Source: Acidimicrobiales bacterium
GTDB taxonomy: Bacteria > Actinomycetota > Acidimicrobiia > Acidimicrobiales > Acidimicrobilacustridaceae
DNA: 64,000 nt
Direction: 5' to 3'
Assembly: GCA_041394145.1 (NCBI GenBank)
Contig: JAWKIW010000002.1
Location: 379,252-443,251, forward strand
The notes beneath the pieces were generated by a model, which worked only from the letters and a program-made list of their open reading frames with translations, was not told the origin of the DNA and ran no database searches. This document shows, piece by piece, positions 1 through 64,000 of this stretch (positions within the stretch are counted from its first letter, which is position 1; each line of letters begins with the position of its first letter). The position numbers and the translations under genes were made by a program.

Positions 1-1147
1 GCCCGCGGTCATCGGCGTGCTGGTCGCCTCGTTCTCGCTGGCCCAGCTGGTGTTCGCGCCGATCTGGGGTCGGCTGTCGGACAAGGTGGGCCGCAAGCCG
101 GTGCTCCTCGTGAGCCTGTTCGGCACGGCGATCGGCTCGCTGCTCACGGGCGTCGCCGGCTCGGTGGCCGTGCTGTTCGCCGGTCGGATCATCGACGGCG
201 CCAGCGGCGCGTCGGTGTCGGTGGCTCAGGCGTCGGCGGCCGACCTGGCCCGGCCGCACCAGCGGGCCAAGCTCATGGGCCTGCTCGGCGCGGCCTTCGG
301 CGTGGGGTTCGTGGCCGGCCCGGCCATCGGTGCGCTCGGCGCGCTGGCCGGTGTGCACGTGCCGTTCTTCCTCGCCGCCGCCATCTCGTTCGTCAACGCC
401 CTGGTGGCGATCAAGCGACTGCCCGAGACGGCGCCGACGAAGGTGACCGCCACGGCGGCGGTGGCGGGGTCCGACCGGGGCTCGGGGCCGGGGCGCAGCT
501 CCGCCCTCGACGACGCCGAGCTCGATGGCGACCGCATCGCCGACGCGCCTGCGCTCGACGGCCCCGGCCTCGTCGAGCCCGGCCACCTCGAGGGACCCGA
601 GCACCGCCGGGAGGTCGACGTCGCCGGCATCGTGCGGCTCATCGTCGTCGCCTTCGTCGGGATGGTCGCCTTCGCCGGCTTCGAGGCGACCTTCTCGTTG
701 CTCGGCGAGAAGCGCTTCGGCTTCGAGCTGGCCGCCACCGGGGCCGTGTTCACCGGCATCGGCCTCGCGCTCGTGGCGGTGCAGGGAGGCCTCGTCGGTC
801 CGGTCACCACGGCGCTCGGGGAGAGGTCGGTGCTCCGCCTCGGCCTGACGGCCAACGCCGTGGGCCTCGCCGTGTTGGCCGTCGACGGAGGGTGGCTGAC
901 CCTCGTGCCGGCGCTGTTGCTGCTCGTCGTGGGCCAGGGCCTGCTCACGCCGACGCTGTCGTCCTCGGTCGCCGGTCGAGCCGGCCACGAGCGCGGGCAG
1001 TGGCTGGGCTGGCAGCAGTCCGCCGGTGGGTTGGCCCGGGTCGTCGGCCCCGTCGCCGCCGGCGTGCTGTTCGGGCAGGTCGGGGTGGCCGCGCCGTATG
1101 TGGTCGGTGCCGTCCTCGTGCTGGTCGCCCTCGCCCTCGTGCCGTAG
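1..1147 (+). CDS. MFS transporter, 5' partial (ORF continues upstream of window)
   Basis: ORF 17..1147 is in frame from base 1. The protein is hydrophobic and Gly/Ala/Leu-rich with MFS-like motifs (GRLSDKVGRKPVLL, multiple TM segments). Confidence 0.8.
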   Translation, partial: PAVIGVLVASFSLAQLVFAPIWGRLSDKVGRKPVLLVSLFGTAIGSLLTGVAGSVAVLFAGRIIDGASGASVSVAQASAADLARPHQRAKLMGLLGAAFGVGFVAGPAIGALGALAGVHVPFFLAAAISFVNALVAIKRLPETAPTKVTATAAVAGSDRGSGPGRSSALDDAELDGDRIADAPALDGPGLVEPGHLEGPEHRREVDVAGIVRLIVVAFVGMVAFAGFEATFSLLGEKRFGFELAATGAVFTGIGLALVAVQGGLVGPVTTALGERSVLRLGLTANAVGLAVLAVDGGWLTLVPALLLLVVGQGLLTPTLSSSVAGRAGHERGQWLGWQQSAGGLARVVGPVAAGVLFGQVGVAAPYVVGAVLVLVALALVP

Positions 1148-1466
1148 CGGCGGCCGCCGGGGCCGCCACCTCGGGTCGCCCGGCGCCGTTCTCGATGGGA
1201 TCGGTGTCGCAGGCCGGTCGGGATCCCATCGAGAACACGGGAACGGGCGGACGCGCCGGAGGTCGCGAGGCCCCGAAACGGGACTTTCGGCCGTCTTGTC
1301 AACACCAGGTCGCTGGGTTACCGTTCGGTACGTTACCGGGGGGTAACTTCGTGCCCGGAGGCGATCCGGGCCCCGGACACCCCACCGCACCGGCGCACCG
1401 ATCGGGCCGATCACCCAGCGCCCAGGCCCTCGGACCCCACTCGCATCGCACAAGGAGCCGTGCCCA

Positions 1467-2699
1467 ATGTCCGACGTGTCGTTCCAGCTGAACGAGGACC
1501 AGCTCACCCTGCAGAAGTGGGTCCACGACTTCGGCGAAGAGGTCATCCGCCCGGTCGCGGCCGAGTGGGACGAGAAGGAGGAGTTCCCCTGGCCGGTGGT
1601 CGAGGAGGCGGCCAAGGTCGGCCTCTACGGCATGGACTTCATGGCTCAGATCATGATGAACGACCCGACCGGGCTCTCGATGCCGGTCGCCACCGAGGAG
1701 CTGTTCTGGGCCGACGCCGGCATCGGCCTGGCGATCATGGGCTCGGGCCTCGCCGCCGCCGGCATCCTCGGCAACGGCACCCCCGAGCAGATCATGGAGT
1801 GGGTCCCGCAGTGCTACGGCACCCCCGACGACGTGAAGCTCGGGGCGTTCTGCGTGTCCGAGCCCGACGCCGGCTCCGACGTGTCCTCGCTGCGCACCAA
1901 GGCCGTCTACGACGAGGCCAAGGACGAGTGGGTCCTCAACGGCACCAAGGCGTGGATCACCAACGGCGGCATCGCCGACGTCCACGTGGTGGTCGCGGCC
2001 GTCGACCCCGAGCTGAAGGGCCGCGGCCAGGCCAGCTTCGTGGTCCCGGCCAACACGCCCGGCCTGTCGCAGGGCCAGAAGTACTCCAAGCTCGGCATCC
2101 GGGCGTCGCACACCGCCGAGGTCGTGCTCGACGACGTGCGGGTGCCCGGCAGCTGCCTGCTCGGCGGCAAGGAGAAGCTCGACGAGAAGCTGGCCCGTGC
2201 CCGTGAGGCGCTGAACAACCCGGGCAAGGTGTCGAGCGGCAAGCAGCCGGCCATGGCCACCTTCGAGGCCACCCGCCCCGCCGTGGGCGCCCAGGCCATC
2301 GGCGTCGCCCGCGCCGCCTACGAGTACGCCCTGCAGTACGCCACCGAGCGCGTCGCCTTCGGCAAGCCGATCGTGATGCACCAGGGCGTGGGCTTCATGC
2401 TCGCCGACATGGCCACCGAGATCGACGCCGCCCGCCTGCTGGTGTGGCGGGCCGCGTGGATGTCGCGCAACAGCCAGTACAAGAACGCCGAGGGCTCGAT
2501 GTCCAAGCTCAAGGCCGGCCGCGTGGCCGTGTGGGTCACCGAGCGGGCCATCCAGATCCTGGGTGGCTACGGCTACGTCAAGGAGTACCCGGTCGAGCGC
2601 TGGCACCGCGACTCGAAGATCTACGACATCTTCGAGGGCACCGAGCAGATCCAGCAGCTGGTGATCGCCCGGGCCATCTCCGGCCTGCGCGTCGAGTAG
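1467..2699 (+). CDS. acyl-CoA dehydrogenase (FAD-dependent)
   Basis: 410-aa ORF with ACAD hallmarks: N-terminal helical domain, central beta domain, and the C-terminal YDIFEGTEQIQQLVIARAISG motif. The last 79 bp lie inside the attL direct repeat. Confidence 0.9.
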   Translation: MSDVSFQLNEDQLTLQKWVHDFGEEVIRPVAAEWDEKEEFPWPVVEEAAKVGLYGMDFMAQIMMNDPTGLSMPVATEELFWADAGIGLAIMGSGLAAAGILGNGTPEQIMEWVPQCYGTPDDVKLGAFCVSEPDAGSDVSSLRTKAVYDEAKDEWVLNGTKAWITNGGIADVHVVVAAVDPELKGRGQASFVVPANTPGLSQGQKYSKLGIRASHTAEVVLDDVRVPGSCLLGGKEKLDEKLARAREALNNPGKVSSGKQPAMATFEATRPAVGAQAIGVARAAYEYALQYATERVAFGKPIVMHQGVGFMLADMATEIDAARLLVWRAAWMSRNSQYKNAEGSMSKLKAGRVAVWVTERAIQILGGYGYVKEYPVERWHRDSKIYDIFEGTEQIQQLVIARAISGLRVE

Positions 2700-2774
2700 C
2701 TCTGACCTGCGCTTTCTTCTGTCAGAGGCCCGCTCACCCGAGCGGGCCTCTGTCGTTGTCGAACCCGGGATCGG
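2621..2774. repeat. attL: 154-bp direct repeat (copy 1) = ACAD 3' end + terminator hairpin
   Basis: Aligned by eye to 34905-35058 with 7 mismatches in 154. Contains two perfect 39-bp blocks, ctacgacatcttcgagggcaccgagcagatccagcagct and gtgatcgcccgggccatctccggcctgcgcgtcgagtag. Confidence 0.8.
2724..2753 (+). terminator. stem-loop (13-bp perfect stem, 4-nt loop) downstream of ACAD; part of att repeat
   Basis: cagaggcccgctc-accc-gagcgggcctctg. A second copy at 35008-35037 has loop accg. No T-tract, which is common in high-GC actinobacteria. Confidence 0.6.
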
Positions 2775-2778
2775 CGTC

Positions 2779-2799
2779 CATCCCTACTCCCATCCCTAC
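2779..2799. promoter_or_regulatory. tandem CATCCCTAC arm-type repeats adjacent to attL (putative integrase arm-binding sites / int promoter region)
   Basis: catccctac at 2779-2787 and 2791-2799, immediately inside the element and 22 bp upstream of the int ATG. A near-identical pair occurs at 34779-34798 next to attR. Confidence 0.5.
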
Positions 2800-2821
2800 T
2801 TTTCACGTAGGGTCTTCAGCC

Positions 2822-4330
2822 ATGGCAACGATCCGGCAGCGCAAGCGCGGTGTCTGGGAGGTCCGGGTGTTCGCCGGGCGCGACGCCCAGGGCAAGCCCG
2901 TCCAGGTCTCCCGTACGGTGCGCGGCGGCAAGAAGGATGCCGAGCGGGTGGCGAGCGAGCTCGAGCTCAAGCCGAGCCGGCCCGACGCCCGCCGGACCGT
3001 CGCCGAGCTCCTCGACGAGTGGCGCGCGCTCAAGGAGGCCAGCTGGGCCCCCTACACGCGCCGAGACCAGGAGAGCCGGTCGCGATCGATCGCCGCCGAT
3101 CGGATCGGGAAGGTCCCCGTCGCCCGGCTGCAGGTCACCGACGTCGATGCCTGGATCGTCCGCCTCCGCAAGGCCGGGGTCGGCGAGGGATCGATCCGCA
3201 ACCAGTTCCAGTCGCTGCGGTCGGCACTGGCCCAGGCGGTCCGTTGGGGGTGGATCGCACAGAACCCGGCCGCGCTGGCGAGCTATGAGCGAGCGAAGCG
3301 GACCTCGCGCGATGTGATGTCCGCCGAGGACGTCCAGGCCGTGCTCGAGGCCGCCGAGCAGGTCAACGAGATGGCGCCGGTCGCGATCCGACTCGCGGCG
3401 ATCACCGGTGCCCGCCGCGCCGAGCTCGCGGCGCTGCGGTGGACCGACCTCGACGGCTCCGTGCTCCGGGTCGACAGCGCCATCACGGTGGTCCGGGAAG
3501 GCTCGGGTGACGATCGGCGGACCGTCCTGCGTGACGATCCGACCAAGACCGCCGACCGTCGACGGGTCGCGCTCGACCCGTCGACCGTGGCCATGCTCGA
3601 AGTGCTGCGGGCCAGGCGTGAGCCCTACACACCGTGGATGTTCAGCGACACGGAGAAGGCTCCCCGCCCCGACCGGATCGGGTACTGGTGGCAGCGTTGC
3701 CGCGAGCTCGCCGGCATCGACGTCGAGTGGCGCCTGCACGACCTCCGCCACTGGTCGGCGACGTTCGCGCTCAGCGAGGGCTACGACGCCGCCACGGTCG
3801 CACATCGGCTTGGGCACTCGGACCCATCGACGACGCTGCGCGCCTACGCCCACGCCAGGGCGCAACGAGACGCCGACCTGGCGTCGAGCCTCGCCGATGC
3901 CTTGGAGATCCCCCCGAACCCGGGTAGCGCCCGCCACGGCGGCGAGGGCCTGTGGCCGGCCGGCGGGACCGATCCCGGGACCGACTGCGGGACCTCGTCC
4001 GACATCCGTTGGTCCGCCCGCGCCGACCGAGTGCCCTCCGGGTCTTGGAGCATGGCGACGCCCGAAAGGCCCGTTGACCTGGGAACGGGACCTTGCTCGG
4101 GACCGAGTACGGGAGTCCCGCCGAGGTCCCGTTGTCGACGCTGCCTGGTCCGCTCCGACGGCCGTCGGTTGAAGGAGATGCCCCGTTTCGGGACCGGAAG
4201 CGTGTCAGCTGCCACCTCACGGCCACGTGGCACGATCTCGAACCGGCGTTCGGCCCGTTGGCGAGACGGTGATCTGGGACACCTCGGCGGTGTGTTCGGA
4301 GACGGATTGCCGCGACCGGGCGGGCGGTAG
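2822..4330 (+). CDS. int: tyrosine integrase (phage-type, N-terminal AP2-like arm-binding domain); catalytic core ends ~3900, ORF reads on to 4330
   Basis: Starts MATIRQRKRGVWEVRVFAGRDAQGKP. The R...HDLRHWSATFALSEGYDAATVAHRLGHSDPSTTLRAYAH motif contains the catalytic Tyr. The C-terminal ~130 aa are a low-complexity GT[DG]-rich extension. Confidence 0.85.
   Translation: MATIRQRKRGVWEVRVFAGRDAQGKPVQVSRTVRGGKKDAERVASELELKPSRPDARRTVAELLDEWRALKEASWAPYTRRDQESRSRSIAADRIGKVPVARLQVTDVDAWIVRLRKAGVGEGSIRNQFQSLRSALAQAVRWGWIAQNPAALASYERAKRTSRDVMSAEDVQAVLEAAEQVNEMAPVAIRLAAITGARRAELAALRWTDLDGSVLRVDSAITVVREGSGDDRRTVLRDDPTKTADRRRVALDPSTVAMLEVLRARREPYTPWMFSDTEKAPRPDRIGYWWQRCRELAGIDVEWRLHDLRHWSATFALSEGYDAATVAHRLGHSDPSTTLRAYAHARAQRDADLASSLADALEIPPNPGSARHGGEGLWPAGGTDPGTDCGTSSDIRWSARADRVPSGSWSMATPERPVDLGTGPCSGPSTGVPPRSRCRRCLVRSDGRRLKEMPRFGTGSVSAATSRPRGTISNRRSARWRDGDLGHLGGVFGDGLPRPGGR
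3964..4207. repeat. cluster of >=7 CGGGACC/GGTCCCG heptamers in the integrase 3' extension
   Basis: cgggacc is seen at 3964, 3976, 3988, 4086, 4099 and 4199, with the inverted form ggtcccg at 4126. Confidence 0.35.
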
Positions 4331-12252: not shown

Positions 12253-12558
12253 AAGGCCCCAGACCATGGAACCCGTCGGAACCGAGGACCGGGTCGCCGG
12301 AGGAGAAGCCCTCCTGGAAGCCGACGGCGGGCCGGCGAGTCGGAGAAGGATCGAACCCCCACACCGGTCGAGACGATGTCGTCGAACGTCATCGGCGCAC
12401 TGTCCCTTAACGCAGCCGCCAACGTCGCCCGCAGGGTGGGTGTGCTCACCTGCATTCCCGGCCCCACTTGAGCAGGTTTGTGCTCGTCTGATTTGGCCCC
12501 ACCCTGACGGTGTCGGGGTCCACCTGGGAGCGGCCGGCTGCTGTGAACCGTGGGGTTC

Positions 12559-14091
12559 ATGGCGAAGAGGTCGAAGGTGGAGTTGTACAGGCAGATCCGC
12601 AAGACCCGCGAGCGTGAGCAGCTCGGGATCCGGGCGTTGGCGCGCCGGTTCGGGGTTCATCGCCGCGCGATGTGCGCCAGGCGTTGGCGTCGGCGGTGCC
12701 GCCGCCGCGCAAGCCGTGCAGCGGGCGTCGCCGGTGCTGGATCGGTGGAAGCCGATCATCGATGGCTGGTTGGAGGCCGACCGGGCGGTGCCGAAGAAGC
12801 AGCGGCACACGGCCCGGCGGGTGTGGCAGCGGCTGGTCGCCGAGCACGGCGCCGAGATCGGCGAGTCGACCGGTGCGCCGCTTACGTGGCGGCGTGGAAG
12901 CCGGCAGCAAGGCGCTGGTGGAGGTGGCGGTGCCCCAGACCCATCCGCTGGGCGCGGAGGCCGAGGTGGACTTCGGGGCGGTCAGCTTCTATCTCGACGG
13001 GGTGCTGTGTGAGGGCCACATGTTCGTGATGCGCTTGTCGGCGTCGGCCAAGGGGTTCCATCAGGTGTATCCGAACGAGGCCCAGCAGGCGTTCCTCGAT
13101 GGCCATGTCCGGGCCTTCGCCCATTTCAGTGGGGTGCCGGGCCGGGTGCGCTATGACAACTTGAAGCCGGCGGTGGAGCGGGTGCTGCGGGGCCGGGACC
13201 GCGCCGAGTCCGAACGGTTCAGTGGCGCTCGCATTCGCCACTACAGGTTCCGACTCGATTGTTCTTCTGTCAGCCCGGCCCCGACGGCGCCCGCCCAGAA
13301 GGTGGCGTGGAAGGAGAGGTGGGCCGGTTCCGTCGCCGTCACCTGGTCCCGATGCCCAACGTCGCCTCGTTCGCCGAGCTCAACGACCTGATCGCGGCCG
13401 CCGACGCCGCCGATGACGCCCGCTGGGTGGCGGGTCGACGCCTCAGCGTCGGTGACCACTTCGCCCTGGAGGCCCCACGCTGGGGTGCCTGCCCGACGAG
13501 GCGTTCGACCCGGCGTTGATGCTGCGGCCCCGGGTGGACACGAAGTCCCGGGTGTGTGTGCGTCAGTGCTTCTACTCAGTGCCGGTGCGCTACGTCCGGG
13601 CGACGCATCGATGTGCGTCTGGGCGCCGACACGATCGAGGCGCTCGACGGGCCCCGGGTGGTGGCCACCCACCCCGGTTGTTGGCCAAAGGCACCGAGAG
13701 CTTGGTGCTGGACCACTACCTGGAGGTGCTACGGCTCAAGCCCGGGGCGCTGCCAGGCGCCACCGCGCTGGCTCGAGCCCGGGCGTCGGGCGCGTTCAGC
13801 GCCGACCACGAAGACGTATTGGTCCGCGGCCCGCCGACGCCTCAACGGCGCCGGCGCACCCAGGCCCTGATCGAGGTCCTGCTGGCCGCAGGCCCTGCCC
13901 GCCGACGCCGTGCGCGCCGGGATCCGAGCGGCGCTACGGATCCCGGTTCAGTCGACCCCGCCATCGTCGTCGTCGGTGCCCGACGAGCCCTCGAGGACCA
14001 CGACGCACGGTCGTGGCGATCGGTAATCGCCCGCTACGACCGCCCACCGCCGACGATCGCCCACTACGACCAGCTCCTGGAGGCCCGATGA
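12559..14091 (+). pseudogene. istA: IS21 transposase IstA (HTH + DDE), multiple frameshifts
   Basis: MAKRSKVELYRQIRKTREREQLGIRALARRFGVHRR is the N-terminal HTH. GHMFVMRLSASAKGFHQVYPNEAQQAFLDGHVRAFAHFSGVPGRVRYDNLKPAV is the catalytic core. C-terminal pieces (VCVRQCFYSVPVRY..., HYLEVLRLKPGALPGATAL) lie in other frames. Confidence 0.7.
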
Positions 14092-41508: not shown

Positions 41509-41557
41509 GAGCGGCCTCCTGGGTCGGCGAGCGGTCGGCGGTCTCCGGCGTCGTGGT

Positions 41558-46748: not shown

Positions 46749-46832
46749 GGTTCGTGATCCTAGGCCTCGGACCCCGCGGCACCACCCCGGTCACGCACAC
46801 CGATGGGCCCGTCGCCTCCGTTGTTGCCTCGA

Positions 46833-50904: not shown

Positions 50905-51448
50905 TCAGCCGGACTTCGTCGCCGCGACCGTCGTGCCGGTTCTCGCCGTGCCGGTGGTGCCGGTCGAGCCGGTGCCGGCCGTCTCGAGCACGACCACGAT
51001 GTAGGTCTGGCCGTCCCTCGGCAGTACGGTGACGCGGCCGGTGTCGGAGCCGCTGAACTTGACCGTGCCGACGTAGCGGTCCCCGCTGCCGATCGAGCTC
51101 TTGCTCTCCACCGTGAGGCTCGACTGGCTCGTGTAGAAGCCGTAGGCGTCCTCCGGCGAGCCCGGGGCGGTGAAGACGCCGACCAGCACGGTCGTCGAGG
51201 ACCCGCCGAGCGAGCCCGAGCCGGCGGGCTGGGCACCGTTCGGCACCGGGAACGCGCTGGGCCAGCCGGGCGGCAGCTTGCCGTCGAGCGACAAGCGACA
51301 CCTGCCCGTCCTCGGTCGAGATCTCGAAGCTCTTCTTGGAGGCGGTGGTGGTCGTGGTGGCCGCCTCGTTCGTCGAGCTGCTCGAGCAGGCGACGCCGCC
51401 GAGCAGGACGGCGGCGGACACGGCGGTGGCGGTGAGGGCTCGCTTCAT
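50905..51448 (-). CDS. lipoprotein (hypothetical); apparent frameshift ~51.29 kb
   Basis: MKRALTATAVSAAVLLGGVACSSS lipobox. The body continues in ORF 50905..51294. Confidence 0.55.
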
Positions 51449-52000
51449 TGCTTCTCCTGGGTCGAGGGTGGCGGCAGGGTACCGCCGACCGGCTCACCTG
51501 CCGGTGCGGCCCGGAAGGCGGCGACGGCGGCGCCCACCGAGTCCTGGTAGGCGTCGGCTCCCACCAGCTCGGTGATCCCGAAGCGGTCGAGCTCGGCGCG
51601 GGTGGCCTCGGCGAACAGCGGGCGCTTGGCCGGGATGCCGGGTCGAGGCCACCGGTCACCAGCCGGACGTTGTGCTCCTGCAGAGCGGCGTGGAGCTGCT
51701 TCAGCGTCTCGCTGCCGGTGAAGTCGACGTCGGGCAGGGCGGACAGGTCGAGGCAGATCCAGCGCACGGCGTCGTCGTCGTCGTGTTGACGAATAGCAGC
51801 ACCTCCTCGCCGAACCACTCGGCGTTCGCGTAGTACAGGGATGCGGCGAAGCGGTACACGACGAGGCCGTCGACGGTCCGGGCGTCGGGCGTGGCCGGCT
51901 CGCCCGTGAACCCCCGGCCGCCCGGCTCCGGCTCGAGCACGGCGGTGGGCGGTCGGTAGGAGCGGCGGATGTGGTCGACGATCGAGGCCACGATGGCGAT
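51445..52000 (-). pseudogene. remnant of SulP-family sulfate permease (STAS domain only, frameshifted)
   Basis: LVVYRFAASLYYANAEWFGEEVL / VRWICLDLSALPDVDFTGSETLKQLHAALQEHNVRL / FAEATRAELDRFGITELVGADAYQDSV across three frames. No transmembrane domain upstream. Confidence 0.45.
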
Positions 52001-52207
52001 GACGATGCTGCGGTCGCGGGACGAGGAACTTCGTGCGCGGGAAGACCACGGGCGTGGTCGACGCCGCACCGGTGCCCGCTCCGTCGCCCCGGCTCACGCC
52101 GGGACAGCGTAGGCGCGGCGGTCCCCAGCCGCCGTCGATCGCTCGGGCCGGATCTCGAGCCGGGGTGCCCTGGGGACCGATCCGTGTGTCGCGAACCGGC
52201 CCGCGGC

Positions 52208-54271
52208 TCAGGGCTCGGGCAGCGTCGGAGGCGTCTGGCCGCCGGCGAGCGCGGCCGCCGGCTCCCGGTCGACCTCGTCGTCTTGTGCCGAGCCCTCGTC
52301 GTCGTCATGGCCGTCGCCGAGGGCGGCGCCGTTGCCCGAGCCGTTGCTGCCGTTGGCGTCGACGGCGAGGTTGCGCATGAGCAGGGCGCCGACGCCGCCG
52401 AGGACGCCGGCATCGCCGCCCACCTGGATGTCGGGCACGATCTTCACGTGGCCGGTGCCCACCTCGCGCAGGGCGGCCACCAGCGCGGTCTGCTCGGCGC
52501 CGATGGCGCGGCGCTGGGCGTCGAAGCCCTTCGCCCGGGCCAGGCCCAACGCCTCCTCGGCCGACGCCGACGCCTCACCGAGGGCCTTGGTGCGGGTGGC
52601 CTCGGCGTCGCCGGTGGTGGTGATGACCGCCGCCTCGCCCTCGGCGCGTGCTCGGGCAGCCTGGGCGCGCGAGCGCTCGATGTCGACCGAGACGTTGGCC
52701 TGGGCCAGCTCGGCCTGCATGTCGGCCACGCCGCGCTGCTGCTCGAGGCTCACCCGGGCCTCCTGGGCCTCGCGCTGCTGGGCGAAGGTGGACCGCTCCT
52801 GGGCGGCGATCTCCCGGCTCGTGAGGACCTGTACGAGGTCGGGCGGGAACACCACGTCCTGGATGTAGACACCGCGCGTCTCGACCTCGTAGCGGGACAG
52901 GTACTGCTGGATGTAGCGCTCGGCGGCGTTCTGCACCTCGTCGCGCTTCTCGATGAACTCGGTGGCGCCGAGGGTCTGCAGCTTGTTGCGGAAGTAGTTG
53001 CCGACGGCGGACTGCAGCACCTCGTTGACCAGGTTCTGCATGGTGCCGACCATGCTGATCACCTTGGGCGCCCGGGTGTCGGGCACGTGGATCTGCACCT
53101 GCAGGTCGATGCTGAAGTTGAACGCCTCCTTCGACTTGGCGTCGATCGGTGCGAGGCGGGCGTCGAGGCTGTGGGCCTCGCTGGTGACGTGGGACCAGTT
53201 GAGGGTCAGGATCGAGGTGGGCACGATCTCGGCCTCGTAGATGCGCGGGTTCAGCGTGTACTTGCCGGTGCGCAGCGGCTCGGACCAGATGCCCTGGTGG
53301 CCGGGCTTGACGATCGAGCCGAACTTGAACTCCTCGCCGGAGGTGTCCTCGGTGGGCAGGCCCACATAGGACTTGATGACCGCCACCTCGCCCTGGCGCA
53401 CCACGAGCATCTCGCGCAGCTCGACCTTCACCAGGAACGGGTTGAGCAGGTACGAGCCGTACAGCAACGGGTCGTGCTGGAGGCCGATGCAGCCGCCGGC
53501 CTCCAGGAACGCCTGGTAGTCCTGGTAGTTGTCGTGCAGGTCGTTCTTGGCCCGCAGCACCGCCTGGATCACCTGGGTGGGTGAGCCGCCGCCCGACTGC
53601 TCCATGGCGGTGACGTCGTCGAAGCCGCCGATGCGGCTGGCGATGTCGCCCGACGGGGGTCCCTCCAGCGTGGTGACCACGCCGACGATGTCCCGGTCAC
53701 CTTGCGGCGTGATGTGCACGACGCGCAGGACGGCGGGGTCGACCTGGCGGATGGCCGCCTGGGTGGCGTCGGAGACGACCTTGCCGAAGGTCGACTCGCT
53801 GGTGAGCACGACGAAGCCGACCGGGTGGATCGGCGCGGTGGTGCCCGGCGGCAGCACCGGGCGCTGCACGCCCCGCTGGCCCCCGTTGGCGAGGAAGGCG
53901 CGGACGTCGGCGAAGCTGCCGAACTCCGGGCGGTACTGGGCCGACTTGGCGCCCGTGGGCAGCGCCGCACCGACCTGGGCGATCACCAGCCCGACGTGGT
54001 CGGGGGGCACCTGCACCCAGTCGAAGCGCTGCACGCGGAACAGCGGCCACAGCTTGAAGCGCAGCCCCGGCATGAGCAGGTCGGCCTGGTAGCCGGCCTC
54101 GCCGTGCATGGCGATGAGCTGGTCGCCCTTGAGCTTCTTGCCGACCCGCTTGGTGACGAGCCCCACCTCGGCAGGCCCGATCGAGTGGAGGCTGCGCAGG
54201 AACAGCAGCACGATCACCGCGGCGACCGCGGCGATCACGATCAACGTGACGCCGATCTGGTCGAAGGACAT
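52208..54271 (-). CDS. SPFH/band-7 flotillin-like protein (YqiK/FloT family)
   Basis: N-terminal TM region, then SPFH domain and a long Ala/Glu/Gln coiled-coil (REAQEARVSLEQQRGVADMQAELAQANVSVDIERSRAQAARARAEGEAA). Confidence 0.85.
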   Translation of the reverse strand: MSFDQIGVTLIVIAAVAAVIVLLFLRSLHSIGPAEVGLVTKRVGKKLKGDQLIAMHGEAGYQADLLMPGLRFKLWPLFRVQRFDWVQVPPDHVGLVIAQVGAALPTGAKSAQYRPEFGSFADVRAFLANGGQRGVQRPVLPPGTTAPIHPVGFVVLTSESTFGKVVSDATQAAIRQVDPAVLRVVHITPQGDRDIVGVVTTLEGPPSGDIASRIGGFDDVTAMEQSGGGSPTQVIQAVLRAKNDLHDNYQDYQAFLEAGGCIGLQHDPLLYGSYLLNPFLVKVELREMLVVRQGEVAVIKSYVGLPTEDTSGEEFKFGSIVKPGHQGIWSEPLRTGKYTLNPRIYEAEIVPTSILTLNWSHVTSEAHSLDARLAPIDAKSKEAFNFSIDLQVQIHVPDTRAPKVISMVGTMQNLVNEVLQSAVGNYFRNKLQTLGATEFIEKRDEVQNAAERYIQQYLSRYEVETRGVYIQDVVFPPDLVQVLTSREIAAQERSTFAQQREAQEARVSLEQQRGVADMQAELAQANVSVDIERSRAQAARARAEGEAAVITTTGDAEATRTKALGEASASAEEALGLARAKGFDAQRRAIGAEQTALVAALREVGTGHVKIVPDIQVGGDAGVLGGVGALLMRNLAVDANGSNGSGNGAALGDGHDDDEGSAQDDEVDREPAAALAGGQTPPTLPEP

Positions 54272-54331
54272 CTCCGCCTCCGTTCTGGGGGCCGACCTGC
54301 CCCCGGCGTGGTCGTCCTGGTCGGCTGGCGG

Positions 54332-55129
54332 TCAGCCGGCGAAGACCTCGACGTCGTCCAACATAACGAAGCCGACGTGCAAATCACCGCGCAGTATCCG
54401 ATCGTCGACCTCGACGTCGGCCCGGCCACCGGGGTAGAGCACCGGCTCGAGGTGCCCGTCGTCGCCGGACCCCGTGGCCGACCCGACGCGGATGAGGGCA
54501 TGCGGCTCGAGCCGCTCACCCTGCCACGTCTGCTCGTCGTAGTCGCGGGTCACGAAGTACCCACCGCGTGGGTTGAAGACGTCGTCGATGACCCGGAAGC
54601 GGCCCGGCTCGACGCCGCGCAGCACCAGGCGGCGGGCGCAGGTGGCCGACGTCTCGCCCTTGACCAGCGCCGCTCGCACGTCGTCCTCTCGGAACAGGCC
54701 GAGGGTGAGGTCGACGCCCGGCGGCACCGCCGTGGTGTCGAGCCGCCGCTCGAGGCGGGTGCGGTGGGCCACCGCACGGGCCGCCTCGGTGCGGCGGAGC
54801 CGGGCCAGGCGCTCCTCTCGCTCCTCGGCGAGGTAGCGCCGGATCTCCTCGTCACCGAACGCCCGGGCCAGCACCGCCCACTGGGCCTCGACCGGCAGCC
54901 GGGCGAACACCGACCGCACGACGCGCTCGCGCTCCTGGTCGGGGATGCGCTCGATGGCGGCGGTGATGGCCGAGGCGTCGGCGGTGTCGTCGGCGACGAC
55001 GCGGGCCACCTCGAGGCGGATCTCGCGGGCGAGGTCGAGGAAGGGGGCCAGCTCGTCGGCCTCGGCGGCCCGCCGCTCGAGCTCGGCTCGATCGGCCCGC
55101 TCCCACCAGCGCTTGCGATCCTCGGCCAC
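54332..55129 (-). CDS. hypothetical protein upstream of flotillin (GTG start chosen; ORF extends to 55369)
   Basis: VAEDRKRWWERADRAELERRAAEADELAPFLDLAREIRLEVARVVADD...GDLHVGFVMLDDVEVFAG. Coding-like composition. Helical N-terminal half. Confidence 0.45.
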   Translation of the reverse strand: MAEDRKRWWERADRAELERRAAEADELAPFLDLAREIRLEVARVVADDTADASAITAAIERIPDQERERVVRSVFARLPVEAQWAVLARAFGDEEIRRYLAEEREERLARLRRTEAARAVAHRTRLERRLDTTAVPPGVDLTLGLFREDDVRAALVKGETSATCARRLVLRGVEPGRFRVIDDVFNPRGGYFVTRDYDEQTWQGERLEPHALIRVGSATGSGDDGHLEPVLYPGGRADVEVDDRILRGDLHVGFVMLDDVEVFAG

Positions 55130-55251
55130 GTCGCCATGATGCCAGCCCCACCGGGGGTCCCGGTCGTGGCGACGGCAGCGGTGGTCGGACCGCCCGGGCG
55201 CGGACGTGCCGCCGGAGGGCCGGCGGCACGTCGACGGGGTGGGGTCCGAGC

Positions 55252-55578
55252 TCAGCGGCGGGTGACCGTGTGGGCGGCCCTGCTCGCTGCGGCGGCGCCG
55301 GGGACCTTCGGGCCCTTGGGGCCGGTGGGCTGGGAGACGAGATCGGTGGTCACGGTGCCGAAGTGCCACTCGCCGTCGGAGCCGCAGTGGAAGAGGCCGA
55401 CCTGGGTGCCGACCGGCACGTAGGAGACCTTGCCGTTGGCGTCCTCGACGGCGCAGCCCTGGCCGGGCTTGCCGGCGGGGCCGTTGTTGGGCTCGGCCGA
55501 CACGGCGTGGCCACCGAGGGCGGCGACGGGGGCGGCGAACAGGACGAGGGAGGCGATGGCGGTGCGGAAGGGCTTCAT
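55252..55578 (-). CDS. small secreted protein
   Basis: MKPFRTAIASLVLFAAPVAALGGHAVSAEP signal peptide. Four Cys. Confidence 0.55.
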   Translation of the reverse strand: MKPFRTAIASLVLFAAPVAALGGHAVSAEPNNGPAGKPGQGCAVEDANGKVSYVPVGTQVGLFHCGSDGEWHFGTVTTDLVSQPTGPKGPKVPGAAAASRAAHTVTRR

Positions 55579-55811
55579 GGCGGGCTCCTGGGTGCTGGCC
55601 CCTCGGGGCCGGTGGTGTGTGGTCGGACGTCCTGACCGCCCTGGGAGCCCGCGCTTACGCGGAGCCGCAGGATTTCTCGCTGGCGCCGTCCGGGCTCCCG
55701 GACCGGGTGGGGGACCGACCTCGCTGCACGACTGGCGTCGGGGCGGTCGCGTCCGGTGGCGGCGCCCCGGTAGCCTCGGTCCTGTTCGGCCGGCGAGCAG
55801 AGGTGATCGGG

Positions 55812-56357
55812 ATGCGCAGGGTGGTCGTGGCGGGCGTGCTGGGCGCGGTGGCCCTGGTGGGCGCCGTGGGCTGCAGCAAGGACGAGCAGGCGTCGGACGC
55901 CACCACGTCGACGTCGGCGCCCACCGAGGTGTCGGCCCCGGCCGAGCCGGGCACGACGGCCAAGGCCCCGGCGAGCTCGGTCACCACCGCCAAGGCGACC
56001 TCCACCACCAGGCCGACGTCGTCGTCGAGCTCGTCGTCGTCGAGCTCGTCGTCCTCGAGCTCGTCGTCGTCGAGCACCTCGTCGTCGGTGCTGGCATCGG
56101 TGAGCTGCGGTCAGATCGCCTTCACGCCCCAGTCGGGCAACATGGCGACCAACATCTCGGGCTCGGGCGTCACCTGTCAGGAGGCGACCGACCTGGTCCG
56201 CCAGGTGGCGGCCGGTCACGACTTCTACAACGGCCCCCGGTCGTTCTCGAGGGGCGGGTACTCCTGCACGGAGCAGCTCGATGCCAGCGCGGTGCTCCCC
56301 ACCGGCCTGTACACCTGCACGAACGGCACGAAGAGGGTCTCCTGGGCCAAGGGATGA
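55812..56357 (+). CDS. lipoprotein with 21-residue poly-Ser tract
   Basis: MRRVVVAGVLGAVALVGAVGCSKDEQ lipobox. SSSSSSSSSSSSSSSSSTSSS is encoded by tcgtcgagc-type repeats at 56.02-56.09 kb. C-terminal Cys-rich domain. Confidence 0.65.
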   Translation: MRRVVVAGVLGAVALVGAVGCSKDEQASDATTSTSAPTEVSAPAEPGTTAKAPASSVTTAKATSTTRPTSSSSSSSSSSSSSSSSSSSTSSSVLASVSCGQIAFTPQSGNMATNISGSGVTCQEATDLVRQVAAGHDFYNGPRSFSRGGYSCTEQLDASAVLPTGLYTCTNGTKRVSWAKG

Positions 56358-56410
56358 GGCGACGCCGGGGGATCTTGCGCCCACGTCGCGCCCTGGCCTA
56401 GGACGGCGGG

Positions 56411-57331
56411 ATGGCCCACGACCCGTTGCCGATCCACCCCCGCGCGCCGGGGTGGTTCCGCCAGGCGCTGGAGGTGCCCTTCGAGGACGGCCGGGTCGAG
56501 GTGGCCGGCGCCACCGTGCACTACGTCGCCTGGGGGCCGCCGGACCGGCCCGGGCTGGTGTTCGTCCACGGCGGCGGCGCCCACGCCCACTGGTGGACCC
56601 ACGTGGCCGCCCGCTTCGCCGACGACTTCCGCGTCCTGGCCCTCGACCTGACCGGCCACGGCGACAGCGACCACCGCGACGTCTACGACTTCGGGCAGTG
56701 GACCGAGGAGGTGGTGGCGGTGGCCGCAGCCGGGCGGATCGAGGGCCCCCCGGTCCTCGTCGGCCACTCGATGGGGGGCTTCGTCACCATCGTGACCGCC
56801 GCCCTGCACGGCGACCGGCTGTCGGGCGTGATCGTGTGCGACTCGCCCGTCACCGAACCCGACCCCGAGGTCGAGTCGTACCGCCTGAAGGAGGCCTTCG
56901 GGCGACCCCGGACCTACGCCTCGGTCGACGAGGCGCTGGCCCGCTTCCGCACGGTCCCGCCCCAGGAGCACTACCTCGACTACGTGATCGACCACGTGGG
57001 CCGCCGATCGCTGCGCCCGGTCGAGGGTGGCTGGCAGTGGAAGTTCGACCGGCGGATCTTCGAGCAGTTCTCCGGCTCCCTGCGCGGCGTCGCCCTGCCC
57101 TACCTGCCCGAGGTGCGCTGCCGGCTCGCGCTGCTGCGCTCCGAGTGCGGCCTGGTCACCCCCGACATCGGCGCGTCGATGTACGAGGCGATGGGACGGG
57201 TGACGCCGATCATCGAGATCCCCGAGGCCGGCCACCACGCCATGCTGGACCAGCCTCAGGTGCTGCTGACCGCGCTGCGGGCCTTCCTCGCCGACTGGGC
57301 CCACTCGACGCCGGTGCGGGCGCGTCGCTGA
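56411..57331 (+). CDS. alpha/beta hydrolase
   Basis: GHSMGG nucleophile elbow. Asp/His later (IPEAGHHAMLDQP). Confidence 0.85.
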   Translation: MAHDPLPIHPRAPGWFRQALEVPFEDGRVEVAGATVHYVAWGPPDRPGLVFVHGGGAHAHWWTHVAARFADDFRVLALDLTGHGDSDHRDVYDFGQWTEEVVAVAAAGRIEGPPVLVGHSMGGFVTIVTAALHGDRLSGVIVCDSPVTEPDPEVESYRLKEAFGRPRTYASVDEALARFRTVPPQEHYLDYVIDHVGRRSLRPVEGGWQWKFDRRIFEQFSGSLRGVALPYLPEVRCRLALLRSECGLVTPDIGASMYEAMGRVTPIIEIPEAGHHAMLDQPQVLLTALRAFLADWAHSTPVRARR

Positions 57332-58805: not shown

Positions 58806-58900
58806 CCGGCGGTCCCGTGGCCGTCCCGTGCCCGTCCCGTGCCCGTCCCGTGGCCGTCCGTGGCGGTCCCGTGGCCGTCCCGTGGCCGTCGGGCTCGGCG
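58806..58900. repeat. tandem array of ~8 x 11-bp units (GTCCCGTGGCC variants) in divergent intergenic region
   Basis: ggtcccgtggcc gtcccgtgccc gtcccgtgccc gtcccgtggcc gtccgtggcg gtcccgtggcc gtcccgtggcc, between MOSC (-) and the membrane protein (+). Confidence 0.7.
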
Positions 58901-58953: not shown

Positions 58954-60771
58954 GTGACCGACGCCCGGCTGCGCCGCCTCGACCAGGTCGCCGGCTGGGC
59001 GGCGGTGGTCCTCGTCGCCGTGCCGTTCGTCGCCAACGCGGTGGTGGCCGCCGGGCTGGAGTGGCACCCGGCGTCGGACCGGGCGGTGATCCTCGCCCGC
59101 ATCACCGACGTCCTCGGCGGCGACCGCCCGCTGGTCGGGGCGTACTCGCGGTTCCGCTTCAACCACCCGGGTCCGCTCGGCTCGTACCTGCTGGCCCCGG
59201 CGTGGGCCCTGCGCTCGACGCCGGGGTCGGTGCTGGCCGCGTGTGCGCTGCTCAACGGGGCGGCCGTCCTCGGCGCTGTTGCGCTCACCCGCCGACGAGC
59301 GGGAAGCCTCGCCGCCGTGGGGATGGCTGCGACGTTGCTGCTCGTCGCCCGGTCGATGGGCCCCGTGCTGCTGCGCGACCCGTGGAACCCGTGGCTGCCG
59401 GTGCTGCCGTTCGCCCTGTTCCTCGTGGCCGCGTGGGCCATGGCCACGGGTTCGCGCTGGGCCCTCCCGGTGGCCGTCGGCGCCGGCTCCTTCGTGGTGC
59501 AGGAGCACATCGGCAGCGCGGCGGTGCTCGCCGCCGTGGGGCTGTGGGGCGCCGCCGCCCTGGCGGCGGTCGCCTGGCGGGAGCGCCCGGCGACCGCGGC
59601 GCGGCCCTGGCTGCGGCCGGTGCTGGTGGGCTCGCTCACCGCCGTGGTGGTCCTCGTGGCCTGGGCTCCACCCGTGCGTCAGCAGGTCACGGCGTCGCCG
59701 GGAGAGGGCAACCTGTCCCGGCTGGTGAGCCACTTCCGCGACGGTGGTGACGACGCCGTCGGCACGACCACGGCCGGTCTCGGCACGGCGCTGGCGATCG
59801 TCGGTCGGCAGGTGCGCCCGCTCGGGCCCTGGCTCGTCGCCGACGAGCCCGTGAACCTGTTCACCGGCGAGGTGGAGCCGCTCTCGCCCTGGTGGGTCGG
59901 CCTCTTCGTCGCCGCGGTCGCCGGCGCCGCGGCCCTGCGGGTTCGACGTCGCCGCGGGCGCGATCCCGCGGTGCTGCTCGCCGTCACCGTGCTCGTGGGG
60001 GCGGCCGCCGGCGTCCTGGCCGTCGCCCGCGTCGAGGACGGCGTCTTCCCCTACCTCATCCGGTGGTGGTGGGTGCTCGCCGCCATGGGGTGGTTCGTGG
60101 TGGCCTGGGTCGTCGGCGGGCTGCTCCTGGAGCTCGTCGGGCGCGATCGACCCGCACCGGCCAGGGCAGTCCTCACCGCCATCGCCGGGTCCGTCCTCGT
60201 GGGTCTGGTCGCGGTCACGAGCGTGCAGGCCGCCGACCGGTCGGTGCCCGATCCCGACCAGAGCCGGGCCCTGGCTGCGCTGGTGGGCCCCGTGCGCGCC
60301 GCCATGGCTCCCGGGGCGGCGGTGCGGGTCACCTCGGCCGGCCAGGACAGCGGATCCTCGAGGCCGGGCTGGCCTTCGACCTCGAGCAGGCGGGCAGCCC
60401 GCTGGCCGCCCCCGCCGACCAGGCCTACATCTGGGGACCGGTGCGCCGGTCGCGACGAGCCACCACCCGATCGACGGCTGATCGTCGCCACCGGCCCGGG
60501 AACGCTGGCGGCGCCAGCACCGCCGGGGTACGAGGTGCTGGCCACCTACGACTCCCTGCCGGCGAGCGAGCGGGCCGAGGCCGAGGTGCTGCGGGTCGAG
60601 GTCGACGCCGCGGTGGCGGTGGCCGAGGCGCGCGGCGACACCGCCTGGGGGCTCGCCGGCGACGCCGATCGACTCGGCATCCCCGAGGAGCGCCTCGCCC
60701 GCCTCGCCGACCTCACCCGGCGCTCGACCGAGGCCGTCGTCTACCGAGCGCGCGCCGAGGCTCCCGGCTGA
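58954..60771 (+). CDS. polytopic membrane protein (hypothetical); apparent frameshifts ~60.33-60.48 kb
   Basis: >=10 hydrophobic helices. C-terminal soluble region ...EVLATYDSLPASERAEAEVLRVEVDAAVAVAEARGD. An alternative frame carries ILEAGLAFDLEQAGSPLAAPADQAYIWGPV. Confidence 0.6.
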   Translation: MTDARLRRLDQVAGWAAVVLVAVPFVANAVVAAGLEWHPASDRAVILARITDVLGGDRPLVGAYSRFRFNHPGPLGSYLLAPAWALRSTPGSVLAACALLNGAAVLGAVALTRRRAGSLAAVGMAATLLLVARSMGPVLLRDPWNPWLPVLPFALFLVAAWAMATGSRWALPVAVGAGSFVVQEHIGSAAVLAAVGLWGAAALAAVAWRERPATAARPWLRPVLVGSLTAVVVLVAWAPPVRQQVTASPGEGNLSRLVSHFRDGGDDAVGTTTAGLGTALAIVGRQVRPLGPWLVADEPVNLFTGEVEPLSPWWVGLFVAAVAGAAALRVRRRRGRDPAVLLAVTVLVGAAAGVLAVARVEDGVFPYLIRWWWVLAAMGWFVVAWVVGGLLLELVGRDRPAPARAVLTAIAGSVLVGLVAVTSVQAADRSVPDPDQSRALAALVGPVRAAMAPGAAVRVTSAGQDSGSSRPGWPSTSSRRAARWPPPPTRPTSGDRCAGRDEPPPDRRLIVATGPGTLAAPAPPGYEVLATYDSLPASERAEAEVLRVEVDAAVAVAEARGDTAWGLAGDADRLGIPEERLARLADLTRRSTEAVVYRARAEAPG

Positions 60772-61525: not shown

Positions 61526-61578
61526 GCGCGGTCGAGCCGCCGAGTGGCCGAGTGGCCGAGTGGCCGAGCGACGCGCCG

Positions 61579-62675: not shown

Positions 62676-62680
62676 CGGCC

Positions 62681-64000
62681 TCAGTCCACCGCCGGGGCGG
62701 GGGCCAGGTCGGTGGGGGGGAGGCCGAGGTCGGCACGGTGCTCTTCGGCGTACTCGTCGTGCTGCAGCGCGACGTCGCGCGCCCGGGCGCGCGCCGGCAG
62801 GAAGGCCAGCGCCACGATCACGCCGGCGAAGGTGGCCACGGCGGCGACGAGGGCGCCGGTGTGCAGGGCGTCCACGAAGGCCTGGTTGGCCGTGGCCAGG
62901 AGGCGGTCGGCGAAGGCTGCGCTCGGACCGCCGGCCGCCTGCAGGCCCTGGGCCACGCCGATGGCGCCACCGAGGGAGCCCTTCGCTGCCGCGACCGCCT
63001 CGGGCGGTGCCGGGGTGCCGGCGAAGAACTCGGTGATCTTGGCGCCGTAGGTCGACGACAGCACGCTGCCGACCACGGCCACGCCCAGGGCGCCGCCCAC
63101 CTGGCGGGTGGTGTCGTTGACCGCCGAGCCGACGCCGGCCTTGGCCAGGGGGAGCGAGCCCATCACCGACTCGGTGGCCGGTGCCATCACGAACGCCATG
63201 CCGAGGGCGATCACCATCAGCCGAACGAGGACGCCACCGTAGGAGGTGTCCACCTGGAGGCTGGTCATCGACACCAGGCCGATGGTGACCAGGCCGAGGC
63301 CGGCGGCGACGATGACCTTGGTGCCGACCTTCTCGGTGATGCGGGCGCTGGTGGGGGCGGCGATCATCATCGTCGCGGCGAAGGGCAGCATCCGCACGCC
63401 CGTCTCGAGGGGGGAGTAGGCGAGCACGAACTGCAGGTACTGGGTCAGCAGGAACATCGACCCGAACATGGCGAAGAACACCAGGGTGATCGAACCGCTG
63501 GCCGCCGAGAACCGCGGGTTCTTGAAGAACCGCAGGTCGAGCATGGGGTGGTCGGTGTGCAGCTCCCAGGCCCCGAAGGCGCCGAGCAGGACGATGCCGA
63601 CGGCGAAGGCGGTGAGGATCGTCGGCGACGTCCAGCCCTCGGCCGGCGCCTCGATCAGCCCGTACAGCAGGGCGACCAGGCCGCCGATCGACAGCAGCGC
63701 GCCGAGCGGGTCGAGCTTGGGGGCGGTCGGGTCCTTCGACGTGGGGATGAGGACGAAGCCCGCCACGATGCCCACCAGCACGATCGGGACGTTCACGAGG
63801 AACACCGAGCCCCAGTAGAAGTGCTCGACGAGGAAGCCGCCGGTGAGCGGGCCGAGGGCGCCGCCGAGGCCGGCCACGCCGGCCCACACGCCGATGGCCC
63901 GGCCGCGCTCCTCGTCGGGGAAGACGTTCGTGATGATCGACAGGGTGGCGGGCATGATCAGCGCGCCGCCGATGCCCATGAAGGCCCGGGTGGCGATGAG
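62681..64000 (-). CDS. MFS drug-efflux transporter (EmrB/QacA-like), N-terminus beyond window
   Basis: Stop 5 bp upstream of the TetR start. 12+ TM helices. ORF 62681..63979 continues to the window edge. Confidence 0.8.
   Translation of the reverse strand, partial: LIATRAFMGIGGALIMPATLSIITNVFPDEERGRAIGVWAGVAGLGGALGPLTGGFLVEHFYWGSVFLVNVPIVLVGIVAGFVLIPTSKDPTAPKLDPLGALLSIGGLVALLYGLIEAPAEGWTSPTILTAFAVGIVLLGAFGAWELHTDHPMLDLRFFKNPRFSAASGSITLVFFAMFGSMFLLTQYLQFVLAYSPLETGVRMLPFAATMMIAAPTSARITEKVGTKVIVAAGLGLVTIGLVSMTSLQVDTSYGGVLVRLMVIALGMAFVMAPATESVMGSLPLAKAGVGSAVNDTTRQVGGALGVAVVGSVLSSTYGAKITEFFAGTPAPPEAVAAAKGSLGGAIGVAQGLQAAGGPSAAFADRLLATANQAFVDALHTGALVAAVATFAGVIVALAFLPARARARDVALQHDEYAEEHRADLGLPPTDLAPAPAVD

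Follow-up and report, generated by a model that had tools for sequence, protein, structure and literature searches.

The frequent frameshifts in a 64-kb stretch of Acidimicrobiales DNA (the window) are very probably consensus errors of the deposited assembly, in which short bursts of uncorrected small indels and a few mismatches interrupt otherwise accurate sequence. Judged from the sequence comparisons below, the organism itself most probably carries intact copies of nearly all of the affected genes. The window comes from an NCBI MAG (72% GC), on a contig of 443,251 bp whose deposited proteins include MEZ5141797 to MEZ5141849 (locus-tag prefix R2726_). An earlier sequence-only reading had listed nine genes whose coding continues in a shifted frame and had favored assembly indel error over pseudogenisation. 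All nine sites hold, with xis as a probable case, and the favored explanation is supported, as conspecific assemblies carry every covered affected gene intact. Frameshifts are indeed frequent both inside and outside the island, as that reading had stated, but their extent was undercounted: at least 17 genes are affected, with ~55–60 frame-breaking events in 64 kb.

Comparison with independent assemblies

Three other data sets (NCBI MAG GCA_029781665.1 and the Logan assemblies of SRR32022564 and SRR15686344) supplied eight contigs that overlap 32,993 nt (~33 kb) of the window at ~97–100% identity. Their divergence of 0.3–2.9%, reaching 4–9% at 45.5–48 kb, shows that they are not the same strain everywhere, and the conspecific comparators within the island are L112 (2.9 kb) and L090 (the island's first 1.2 kb) only. 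A scan of a genome collection with the sulfatase maturase did not find a conspecific genome; the best match had 77% identity, and the neighboring genes of the relatives were mostly non-syntenic. Frame changes were placed with a frameshift-aware aligner, as plain tblastn blurred the relaxase shifts.

None of the frame-breaking indels was present in the comparators that cover them (L087, L089, L108, L109, L110, L111 and L112), in which the gene products are intact (429, 486, 465, 753, 186, 180 and 606 aa), and no coding lesion common to the window and any comparator was found. With the genes intact in other, independent assemblies of the organism, almost all of the frame breaks are best read as assembly errors. 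Checking orthologs, as had been proposed, gave the same picture: the genes are unbroken in conspecific contigs, and arylsulfatase, relaxase and the hypothetical gene match full-length homologs. Twelve genes were frame-corrected (at least 33 frame changes), and no in-frame stop was found in their ~5,700 codons; the nine that could be set against conspecific proteins were 88–100% identical to them.

Codon-usage Viterbi and GC-by-position passes were also run on the window. The Viterbi pass independently placed a switch of frame on the same strand at seven of the nine listed sites, and its calls on the xis and relaxase stretch were mostly non-coding or fragmented. Much of the island came out as non-coding in these passes, yet the ORFs seen on inspection at 4.0–6.9 kb are small and intact, with atypical codon usage; a non-coding call is therefore not a proxy for error.

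Error bursts and frame breaks in the island

The following features were mapped inside the island:

12553 to 14859, plus strand: IS21-family istA/istB with at least seven frame switches; Pfam models are split between frames and the Viterbi pass agrees
15100 to 16500, plus strand: third tyrosine recombinase, frame-split, from weak Pfam matches only
16614 to 18077, plus strand: further same-strand frame switches, including a GNAT-like ORF, from codon statistics and reading of translations only
22317 to 22427, plus strand: error burst in the gene of the RitB-like second tyrosine recombinase (~21648–22930), from alignment to L112, a Logan contig
24169 to 24325, minus strand: error burst of seven indel events and seven substitutions, from the L112 alignment, in a gene of at least 192 aa in L112
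28968 to 28990, minus strand: frameshift (at ~28974) in a hypothetical gene (~28512–29074); homolog P0396 (178 aa) aligns over both frames
30640 to 30662, plus strand: probable frameshift in the xis/HTH_17 gene (~30492–30710); joining the frames extends the profile match
31713 to 32531, plus strand: error-dense patch in the TrwC domain at the N-terminus of a MobF relaxase (gene 31631–34154), from frameshift-aware alignment to P0146, P0147 and P0150

The first three features and the burst at 24169–24325 are additional to the nine listed genes. The most direct view of a burst came from L112, which showed zero differences from window positions 21519–24395 over ~2.6 kb outside two bursts of ~110 and ~160 nt. 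Together, these two bursts account for 12 indel events and 10 substitutions. The one at 22317–22427 contributes five indel events (−4, −2, −1, −1 and +1 nt) and three substitutions; L112 codes for an intact 429-aa recombinase (P0276), to which the frame-corrected window gene is identical at 422 of 425 residues. In the IS21 element, the IstB_IS21 model is matched from 81 to 197 in one frame and from 195 to 229 in another, and the Mu-transpos_C_2 model is divided between two frames at 1–38 and 35–67. The Phage_integrase model is split likewise in the third recombinase, with weak matches at 7–58 in one frame and 56–131 in the other.

Joining the xis frames extended the HTH_17 match from positions 1–22 (18.0 bits) to 1–50 of 51 (24.4 bits) and raised the TIGR01764 score from 16.0 to 21.5 bits. 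These scores lie below the curated cut-offs, and they make a frameshift in xis probable. The relaxase patch is dense, with 13–16 frame changes in ~850 nt relative to three homologs of 849–851 aa. Identity to P0146 is nevertheless 74% in the patch (241/327) and 73% in the clean C-terminal part; since decay with so many indels should add many substitutions, the patch is better read as error. The GenBank product of this gene is a 667-aa fragment (P0145) labeled 'AAA family ATPase', which corresponds to the C-terminal two thirds of the ~850-aa MobF relaxase. A viral-contig scan with the relaxase found only relatives of ~30% identity. The neighborhood of P0150, the closest genomic relaxase homolog, was non-syntenic and held no homologs of xis or the hypothetical gene.

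Genes outside the island and intergenic DNA

Outside the island, the following positions were mapped:

39643 to 39644, plus strand: 1-nt deletion in the secreted-protein gene (~38634–40090); L087 and L108 are each one base longer, with an intact 486-aa gene
40089 to 40110, no strand: spacer of two convergent genes, where a 6-nt deletion removes the secreted-protein TAG and a substitution changes the kinase TGA to TGG
40549, minus strand: extra T in the diacylglycerol/lipid kinase gene (~40106–41508); the L108 protein is intact (465 aa), and distant homologs span both frames
46383 to 46496, minus strand: compensated pair, −G (46383) and +T (46496), in a MalT-type regulator gene (44484 to ~46740)
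47146 to 47504, minus strand: at least four frame changes in a 229-aa gene (46.8–47.5 kb), from alignment to an L108 protein (196/224 identity)
49989, plus strand: extra T in the arylsulfatase gene (48250–50605), lacking in the conspecific contig as well as in three others of greater distance
50607 to 50877, no strand: intergenic DNA with eight indel events over 270 nt, from the L089 alignment
51293, minus strand: extra A in the lipoprotein gene (~50912–51455), from the L089 alignment, with 180/180 residues identical after correction
51605 to 51788, minus strand: −10 nt (51605), −3 nt and −1 nt (51788) in a STAS-domain gene (~51449–52010)
60352 to 60443, plus strand: compensated pair, −1 nt (60352) and −2 nt (60443), in a 605-aa membrane-protein gene (58954–60771); L109, L110 and L111 carry the missing bases

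The MalT-type, 229-aa and STAS-domain genes extend the original list. Once corrected, the kinase is identical to the L108 protein at 460 of 465 residues; its GenBank product, MEZ5141828.1, named 'diacylglycerol kinase', has 408 aa and ends in an out-of-frame tail, against a true length of 465 aa. For arylsulfatase, the 120 best database homologs measure 782–802 aa and cover 99–100% of the joined 785-aa sequence. The membrane-protein pair puts 30 codons out of frame, and correction restores identity at 597 of 604 residues. At 60352 and 60443, three assemblies from three data sets are unanimous against the window; at 39643, two are. The eight events in the intergenic stretch at 50607–50877 show that indels occur independently of genes.

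Some of these positions are read with more reserve. The cause of the changes in the spacer at 40089–40110 is uncertain, as the spacer also differs between the two comparators. The MalT-type pair, which puts ~38 codons out of frame, lies in a region of 4–9% strain divergence, and its reading as error is our least certain call. The indels at 46.4–47.7 kb could be natural, given that 45.5–48 kb is hypervariable (4–9% divergence).

Distribution and type of the indels

The errors are patchy rather than even, a refinement of the earlier account, and are ~3 times denser in the mobile-element genes of the island. Bursts span 100–1,800 nt between clean stretches, and within them indels locally rival or outnumber substitutions, whether the sequence is coding or not. 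The segment at 49989–51788 holds 13 indel events and 17 substitutions, and the adjoining DNA serves as a control:

52007 to 56907, no strand: clean control stretch that differs from the conspecific contig by 19 substitutions and 0 indels

A second clean stretch, at 1–3920, has 0 indels and 38 substitutions. Intragenic indels are nearly all of 1–2 nt and not multiples of three, the same kind being dense in intergenic DNA; some deletions reach 4–10 nt. Single-base insertions comprise seven T, one A and two G despite the 72% GC of the genome, many being a T inserted among other bases. Two indels shared with some comparators, at 60926 and 61541, are both intergenic, where real polymorphism would be expected, and are clearly real variants of the population.

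A comparison of the indels with homopolymer or GC-run context, which the sequence-only reading had suggested, did not explain the pattern: in the regions compared, an indel adjoins only 2 of the 68 runs of ≥5 nt. This speaks against the classical homopolymer errors of nanopore, 454 and Ion Torrent sequencing and leaves other kinds of artefact untouched. As causes of burst location, homopolymers (66 of the 68 runs without an adjacent indel), GC content (ordinary in bursts) and in-window repeats (which do not account for the bursts) were all rejected.

Probable origin of the errors

The contig was probably assembled from noisy long reads, alone or in a hybrid with short reads, and most positions would have been corrected afterwards. 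Where depth was low, strains were mixed or mobile elements recur across the community, the consensus may have been poor and have stayed wrong; split or shortened gene calls would have followed, to be deposited as fragmentary proteins. Of the earlier suggestion, 'long-read or MAG', the second half is borne out by the MAG and its 443-kb contig, while for the first half the platform and pipeline are what we infer.

Indel errors in long-read assemblies are well documented, including residual errors after short-read polishing (PMC12007338, PMC8812927 and PMC6487183), and gene-fragmenting indels of this kind are described for long-read and hybrid assemblies of bacteria and metagenomes (PMC12007338, Kastor; PMC8812927, Polypolish; PMC6487183). 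Common to the window and such cases are small indels that break up or shorten genes whatever their function, that accurate assemblies of the organism lack, that outlast polishing in difficult regions and that inflate apparent pseudogene counts. It departs from typical long-read errors, on a platform that is itself inferred, in that the indels are not centered on long homopolymers, cluster in bursts of 100–1,800 nt, show T-biased insertions and include a few deletions of 4–10 nt.

Alternative explanations

The strongest competitor is a mixed origin, in which the dense bursts are errors and some isolated events are real strain variants; we consider it unlikely, though well ahead of the other alternatives. 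Its candidates are the events at 39643 and 40549, the shift at 28974, the xis shift, the MalT-type pair and the indels at 46.7–47.7 kb, and comparison alone cannot separate such isolated events from real mutations. The natural hypervariability of 45.5–48 kb and the real intergenic indel polymorphisms at 60926 and 61541 also speak for it. Against these points, the assembly demonstrably carries artefactual indels of this size by the dozen, the corrected proteins are 95–100% identical to intact conspecific proteins, and every such event would have to be a deleterious private mutation. That a minority of isolated events is real seems highly improbable; candidates would be the extra T of the kinase gene, the 1-nt deletion in the secreted-protein gene and the compensated pairs, which leave the MalT-type and membrane-protein genes open. 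If it were so, the strain would have an unusually high rate of small indels, with second-site compensating frameshifts rescuing genes.

Genuine pseudogenisation, with real mutations fixed in a strain undergoing gene decay, is very improbable. Many functionally unrelated genes are affected, non-mobile ones included; related strains lack the lesions, which is what recent strain-specific mutations would give; and decaying integrated elements are common in nature, as are defective mobile elements with real frameshifts. Such decay is nevertheless difficult to reconcile with five to seven indels per 110–160 nt inside sequence otherwise 100% identical to another assembly, or with a relaxase that carries 13–16 shifts in 850 nt and no lowering of amino-acid identity. 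Relaxed constraint is not seen (74% in the relaxase patch versus 73% in the clean part), coding lesions are absent from all comparators and the ~5,700 corrected codons contain zero nonsense codons. Indel density is equal in intergenic DNA, long neighboring stretches lack any indel, and two compensated pairs each fall within ~100 nt.

Reductive genomes, such as that of Mycobacterium leprae and those of recent host-restricted symbionts, display nonsense mutations, larger deletions, raised substitution rates and lineage-shared lesions. The window resembles the M. leprae type in its many disrupted genes along the chromosome, housekeeping-type genes included, but its lesions are private to one assembly and almost purely small indels, with protein identity untouched. 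It is also reminiscent of decayed remnants of integrative/conjugative elements, as the integrase, recombinase, IS and relaxase genes of the island are the most disrupted. Unlike such remnants, the same recombinase is intact in an independent assembly with identical DNA outside the bursts, and the broken pieces of the relaxase are as conserved as its intact part.

Programmed ribosomal frameshifting or recoding in some genes, for instance the IS21 transposase, can practically be dismissed: some insertion-sequence families do make their transposase by programmed −1 frameshifting, but IS21 elements are not known to do so, the shifts are multiple per gene and run in both directions, and 11 genes are single uninterrupted ORFs in homologs or conspecific copies (xis, IS21 and the third recombinase being without a full-length homolog for comparison).

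Consequences for the deposited record

Taken as assembly error, the broken frames are not a real biological feature, and the finding is mainly about data quality. Pseudogene counts, metabolic reconstruction and mobile-element calls made from this MAG would be distorted, and since its frameshifts are read as errors, the island should not be scored as decayed or immobile on their account. Truncated or chimeric products of the record are already present in protein databases, among them MEZ5141828.1 and the 667-aa 'AAA family ATPase'. The burst-like, non-homopolymer pattern also means that homopolymer checks alone miss errors of this kind.

Frame shifts at nine listed genes

In the sequence-only reading, nine genes of the window had been listed as having conserved motifs that continue in a shifted frame, and three-frame translations bore this out, with recognizable protein sequence running on in another frame at all nine. 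Viterbi passes using GC by codon position and codon usage gave same-strand frame switches at 22.36–22.39, 28.98, 39.62–39.64, 40.55, 49.98, 51.30 and 60.35–60.48 kb, coinciding with seven of these sites; the stretch with xis and relaxase was mostly non-coding or fragmented in these passes because frames change too often there.

The window lies on a 443,251-bp contig of an NCBI metagenome-assembled genome (MAG), with proteins MEZ5141797 (window 1467–2696) to MEZ5141849. Comparator contigs of the same species were found through exact look-up of intact window proteins. They comprised four contigs of NCBI MAG GCA_029781665.1 (L089, L090, L108 and L109) and Logan contigs from SRR32022564 and SRR15686344 (L087, L088, L110 and L111), with L112 (SRR32022564) added for the island, the mobile-element region. 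Their overlap with the window totals 32,993 nt, and they vary in strain closeness to it, L108 being 4–9% divergent at 45.5–48 kb. The window has ~72% GC, and MAGs of Acidimicrobiia, Microthrixaceae and Iamiaceae supplied the overwhelming majority of homologs of its genes. Each listed site was checked against homologs or conspecific DNA.

Listed genes and the evidence at each site
49989, arylsulfatase: extra T, the one unpaired gap common to nucleotide alignments with four other contigs; the joined two-frame sequence is 99–100% covered by the best 120 database matches, all 782–802 aa
40549, lipid kinase: T absent from L108, whose protein is intact (465 aa); more distant homologs align across the two frames
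39643/4, secreted protein: one base fewer than in two independent contigs, where the gene is intact (486 aa)
51293, lipoprotein: extra A; the frame-corrected product matches 180/180 residues of the conspecific protein
60352 and 60443, membrane protein: −1 nt and −2 nt, leaving 30 codons out of frame; three assemblies contradict the window at both positions
22317–22427, second tyrosine recombinase: five indel events versus a Logan contig with an intact 429-aa copy; 422/425 residues match after correction
28.97 kb, hypothetical gene: a 178-aa homolog extends across both frames
31713–32531, relaxase: 13–16 frame changes versus three ~850-aa homologs with an N-terminal TrwC domain
30.65 kb, xis: frame joining lengthens the HTH_17 match from model positions 1–22 to 1–50 of 51, with scores below curated cut-offs; the weakest-supported of the nine

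The same comparisons revealed broken genes beyond this list.

Further broken genes
STAS protein: −10, −3 and −1 nt
MalT-type regulator: compensated −G/+T pair
229-aa gene: broken frame
24.17–24.33 kb gene: seven indel events
IS21 istA/istB: Pfam models run on from one frame into another
Third tyrosine recombinase: Pfam models run on from one frame into another
16.6–18.1 kb, ORFs: broken frames

We estimate that at least 17 genes are affected, by ~55–60 frame-breaking events across the 64 kb; the island holds about three quarters of these events.

The indels are private to the record and clustered

None of the coding frame-breaking indels was present in any comparator across the 32,993 nt, and the comparator genes were intact. 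Differences from the comparators are extremely patchy. L112 is identical to the window over ~2.6 kb save for two bursts of ~110 and 160 nt, which together hold 12 indel events and 10 substitutions. Window 49989–51788 differs by 13 indel events and 17 substitutions, with eight indels inside 270 nt of intergenic DNA, and the adjoining 4.9 kb has 0 indels and 19 substitutions. Indels are likewise absent from window 1–3920 (38 substitutions) and from 40550–46382 (~5.8 kb). The relaxase patch, with one frame change per ~60 nt, shows no extra divergence: identity to the nearest homolog is 74% over its pieces and 73% over the C-terminal 551 residues, which are uninterrupted. No in-frame stops were found in ~5,700 frame-corrected codons of twelve genes, and the corrected proteins were 88–100% identical to their conspecific counterparts.

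Natural indels show another pattern: those common to only some comparators (60926 and a repeat at 61541) lie between genes. The window matches L110 at 61541 and differs from L109 and L111, and this site is therefore a natural polymorphism. Short intergenic tandem repeats (~8–11-nt units) at 58826–58837 and 61538–61542 vary in copy number among assemblies.

The sequence-only reading had pointed to homopolymer context as a check on such errors; the outcome was negative, with an adjacent indel at 2 of 68 runs of ≥5 nt in the compared regions. Ten single-base insertions private to the window (including those at 24175, 40549, 46496, 49989, 50616, 50806, 50837 and 51293) are 7 T, 1 A and 2 G despite the 72% GC genome. 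The inserted bases sit mostly between other bases, often after C, and mostly extend no run; this T bias may be the signature of a basecaller or consensus tool. Several deletions are 3–10 nt. Burst GC was ordinary, and repeats within the window gave no explanation of burst positions.

Cause of the frame shifts

The attribution of these indels to assembly error is supported, as they are private to the record, clustered and found irrespective of coding status. Taking them out gives back conserved full-length proteins. Technical error very probably accounts for the great majority of events, and the frame shifts of the window are not a biological feature.

That a few isolated events, at least one, are nonetheless real is unlikely but deserves some weight. 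The MalT pair and the 229-aa gene indels could be natural because of the divergence of L108 there, and they are the lowest-rated of the events as errors. Window 45500–48000 spans the MalT-type regulator's N-terminal half, the 229-aa gene and intergenic DNA up to a LURP-one-related gene; it is hypervariable between the two conspecific MAGs (20–45 substitutions per 500 nt versus 0–14 in most other bins) and could represent a recombined allele. Across the 22-nt spacer at 40089–40110 both convergent genes have lost their stop codons in the window, the secreted-protein TAG through a 6-nt deletion and the kinase TGA by change to TGG; this spacer differs strongly between the two comparators too.

Real pseudogenisation as the general cause is highly improbable, because decay gives neither clusters of 1–2-nt indels within otherwise sister-identical sequence nor a dozen frameshifts lacking matching substitutions or stop codons, as consensus error does. 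Programmed frameshifting can be dismissed almost entirely, the homologs being single ORFs.

For the favored technical error, the contig's length of 443,251 bp, which is uncommon for a community member of 72% GC, suggests together with the indel-dominated profile that the sequence came from noisy long reads or hybrid gap filling. Most of the contig appears well corrected, since long stretches are 99.6–100% identical to other assemblies. On this view the bursts would mark sites of failed correction, which include the flank of a structural variant at window 52007/8, the region hypervariable between strains, and mobile-element genes, possibly multi-copy or common to several community members. The variant is a segment of 3.76 kb (L089 4902–8661) that lies between the SPFH and STAS genes and is absent at window 52007/52008; it holds two small genes and one for a 902-aa MalT/LuxR-type regulator. 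The densest non-island error patch (49989–51788) stops near this breakpoint.

Short-read polishing leaves residual errors in hard-to-map regions (PMC8812927), and long-read indels fragment genes (PMC12007338, PMC6487183). The problem here is of this familiar kind, but its profile is atypical in being burst-like and non-homopolymer.

Consequences for the deposited record

Indel errors inflate the pseudogene load of the MAG and make the apparent decay of the island unreliable. Some deposited proteins are artefacts. MEZ5141828.1 is a kinase of 408 aa whose tail is out of frame, and the 667-aa "AAA family ATPase" is a piece of the relaxase. Other public MAGs may contain artefacts of this class too. 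In two Microflora Danica-type MAG contigs from relatives, a kinase gene (L082) and a DUF222-region gene (L006) are likewise split across frames.

Ends and cargo of the island

Direct repeats of 158 nt (94.9% identical) flank the ~32.3-kb island.

Features of the island
2617–2774 and 34901–35058: 158-nt repeats, the left one overlapping the 3′ end of an acyl-CoA dehydrogenase gene (1467–2699)
2822–4030: intact tyrosine integrase just inside the left repeat (Phage_integrase model 2–171 of 172)
20608–21651 and 21648–22930: two adjacent tyrosine recombinase genes, ends overlapping by 4 nt; the ORF after them (201 aa) has no Pfam match
34214–34462 and 35079–35327: second direct repeat pair, 250 nt, 90% identical
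25842–27011 and 27168–28500: cargo, an intact serpin-family gene (MEZ5141817.1) and a gene whose translation, inspected by eye, shows a GGDEF-type diguanylate cyclase motif

The 158-nt repeats look like the attL and attR of an element whose integration site was the 3′ end of a protein-coding gene; conspecific contig L090 also has the left junction and the integrase. One copy of the second pair follows the relaxase just inside the right end and the other lies just outside attR, and the pair may have been left behind by a related element that inserted earlier or in tandem. The arrangement at 20608–22930 resembles recombinase-in-trio elements but has two recombinases only. Homologs of ~429 aa number in the hundreds in metagenomes, at 70–89% identity.
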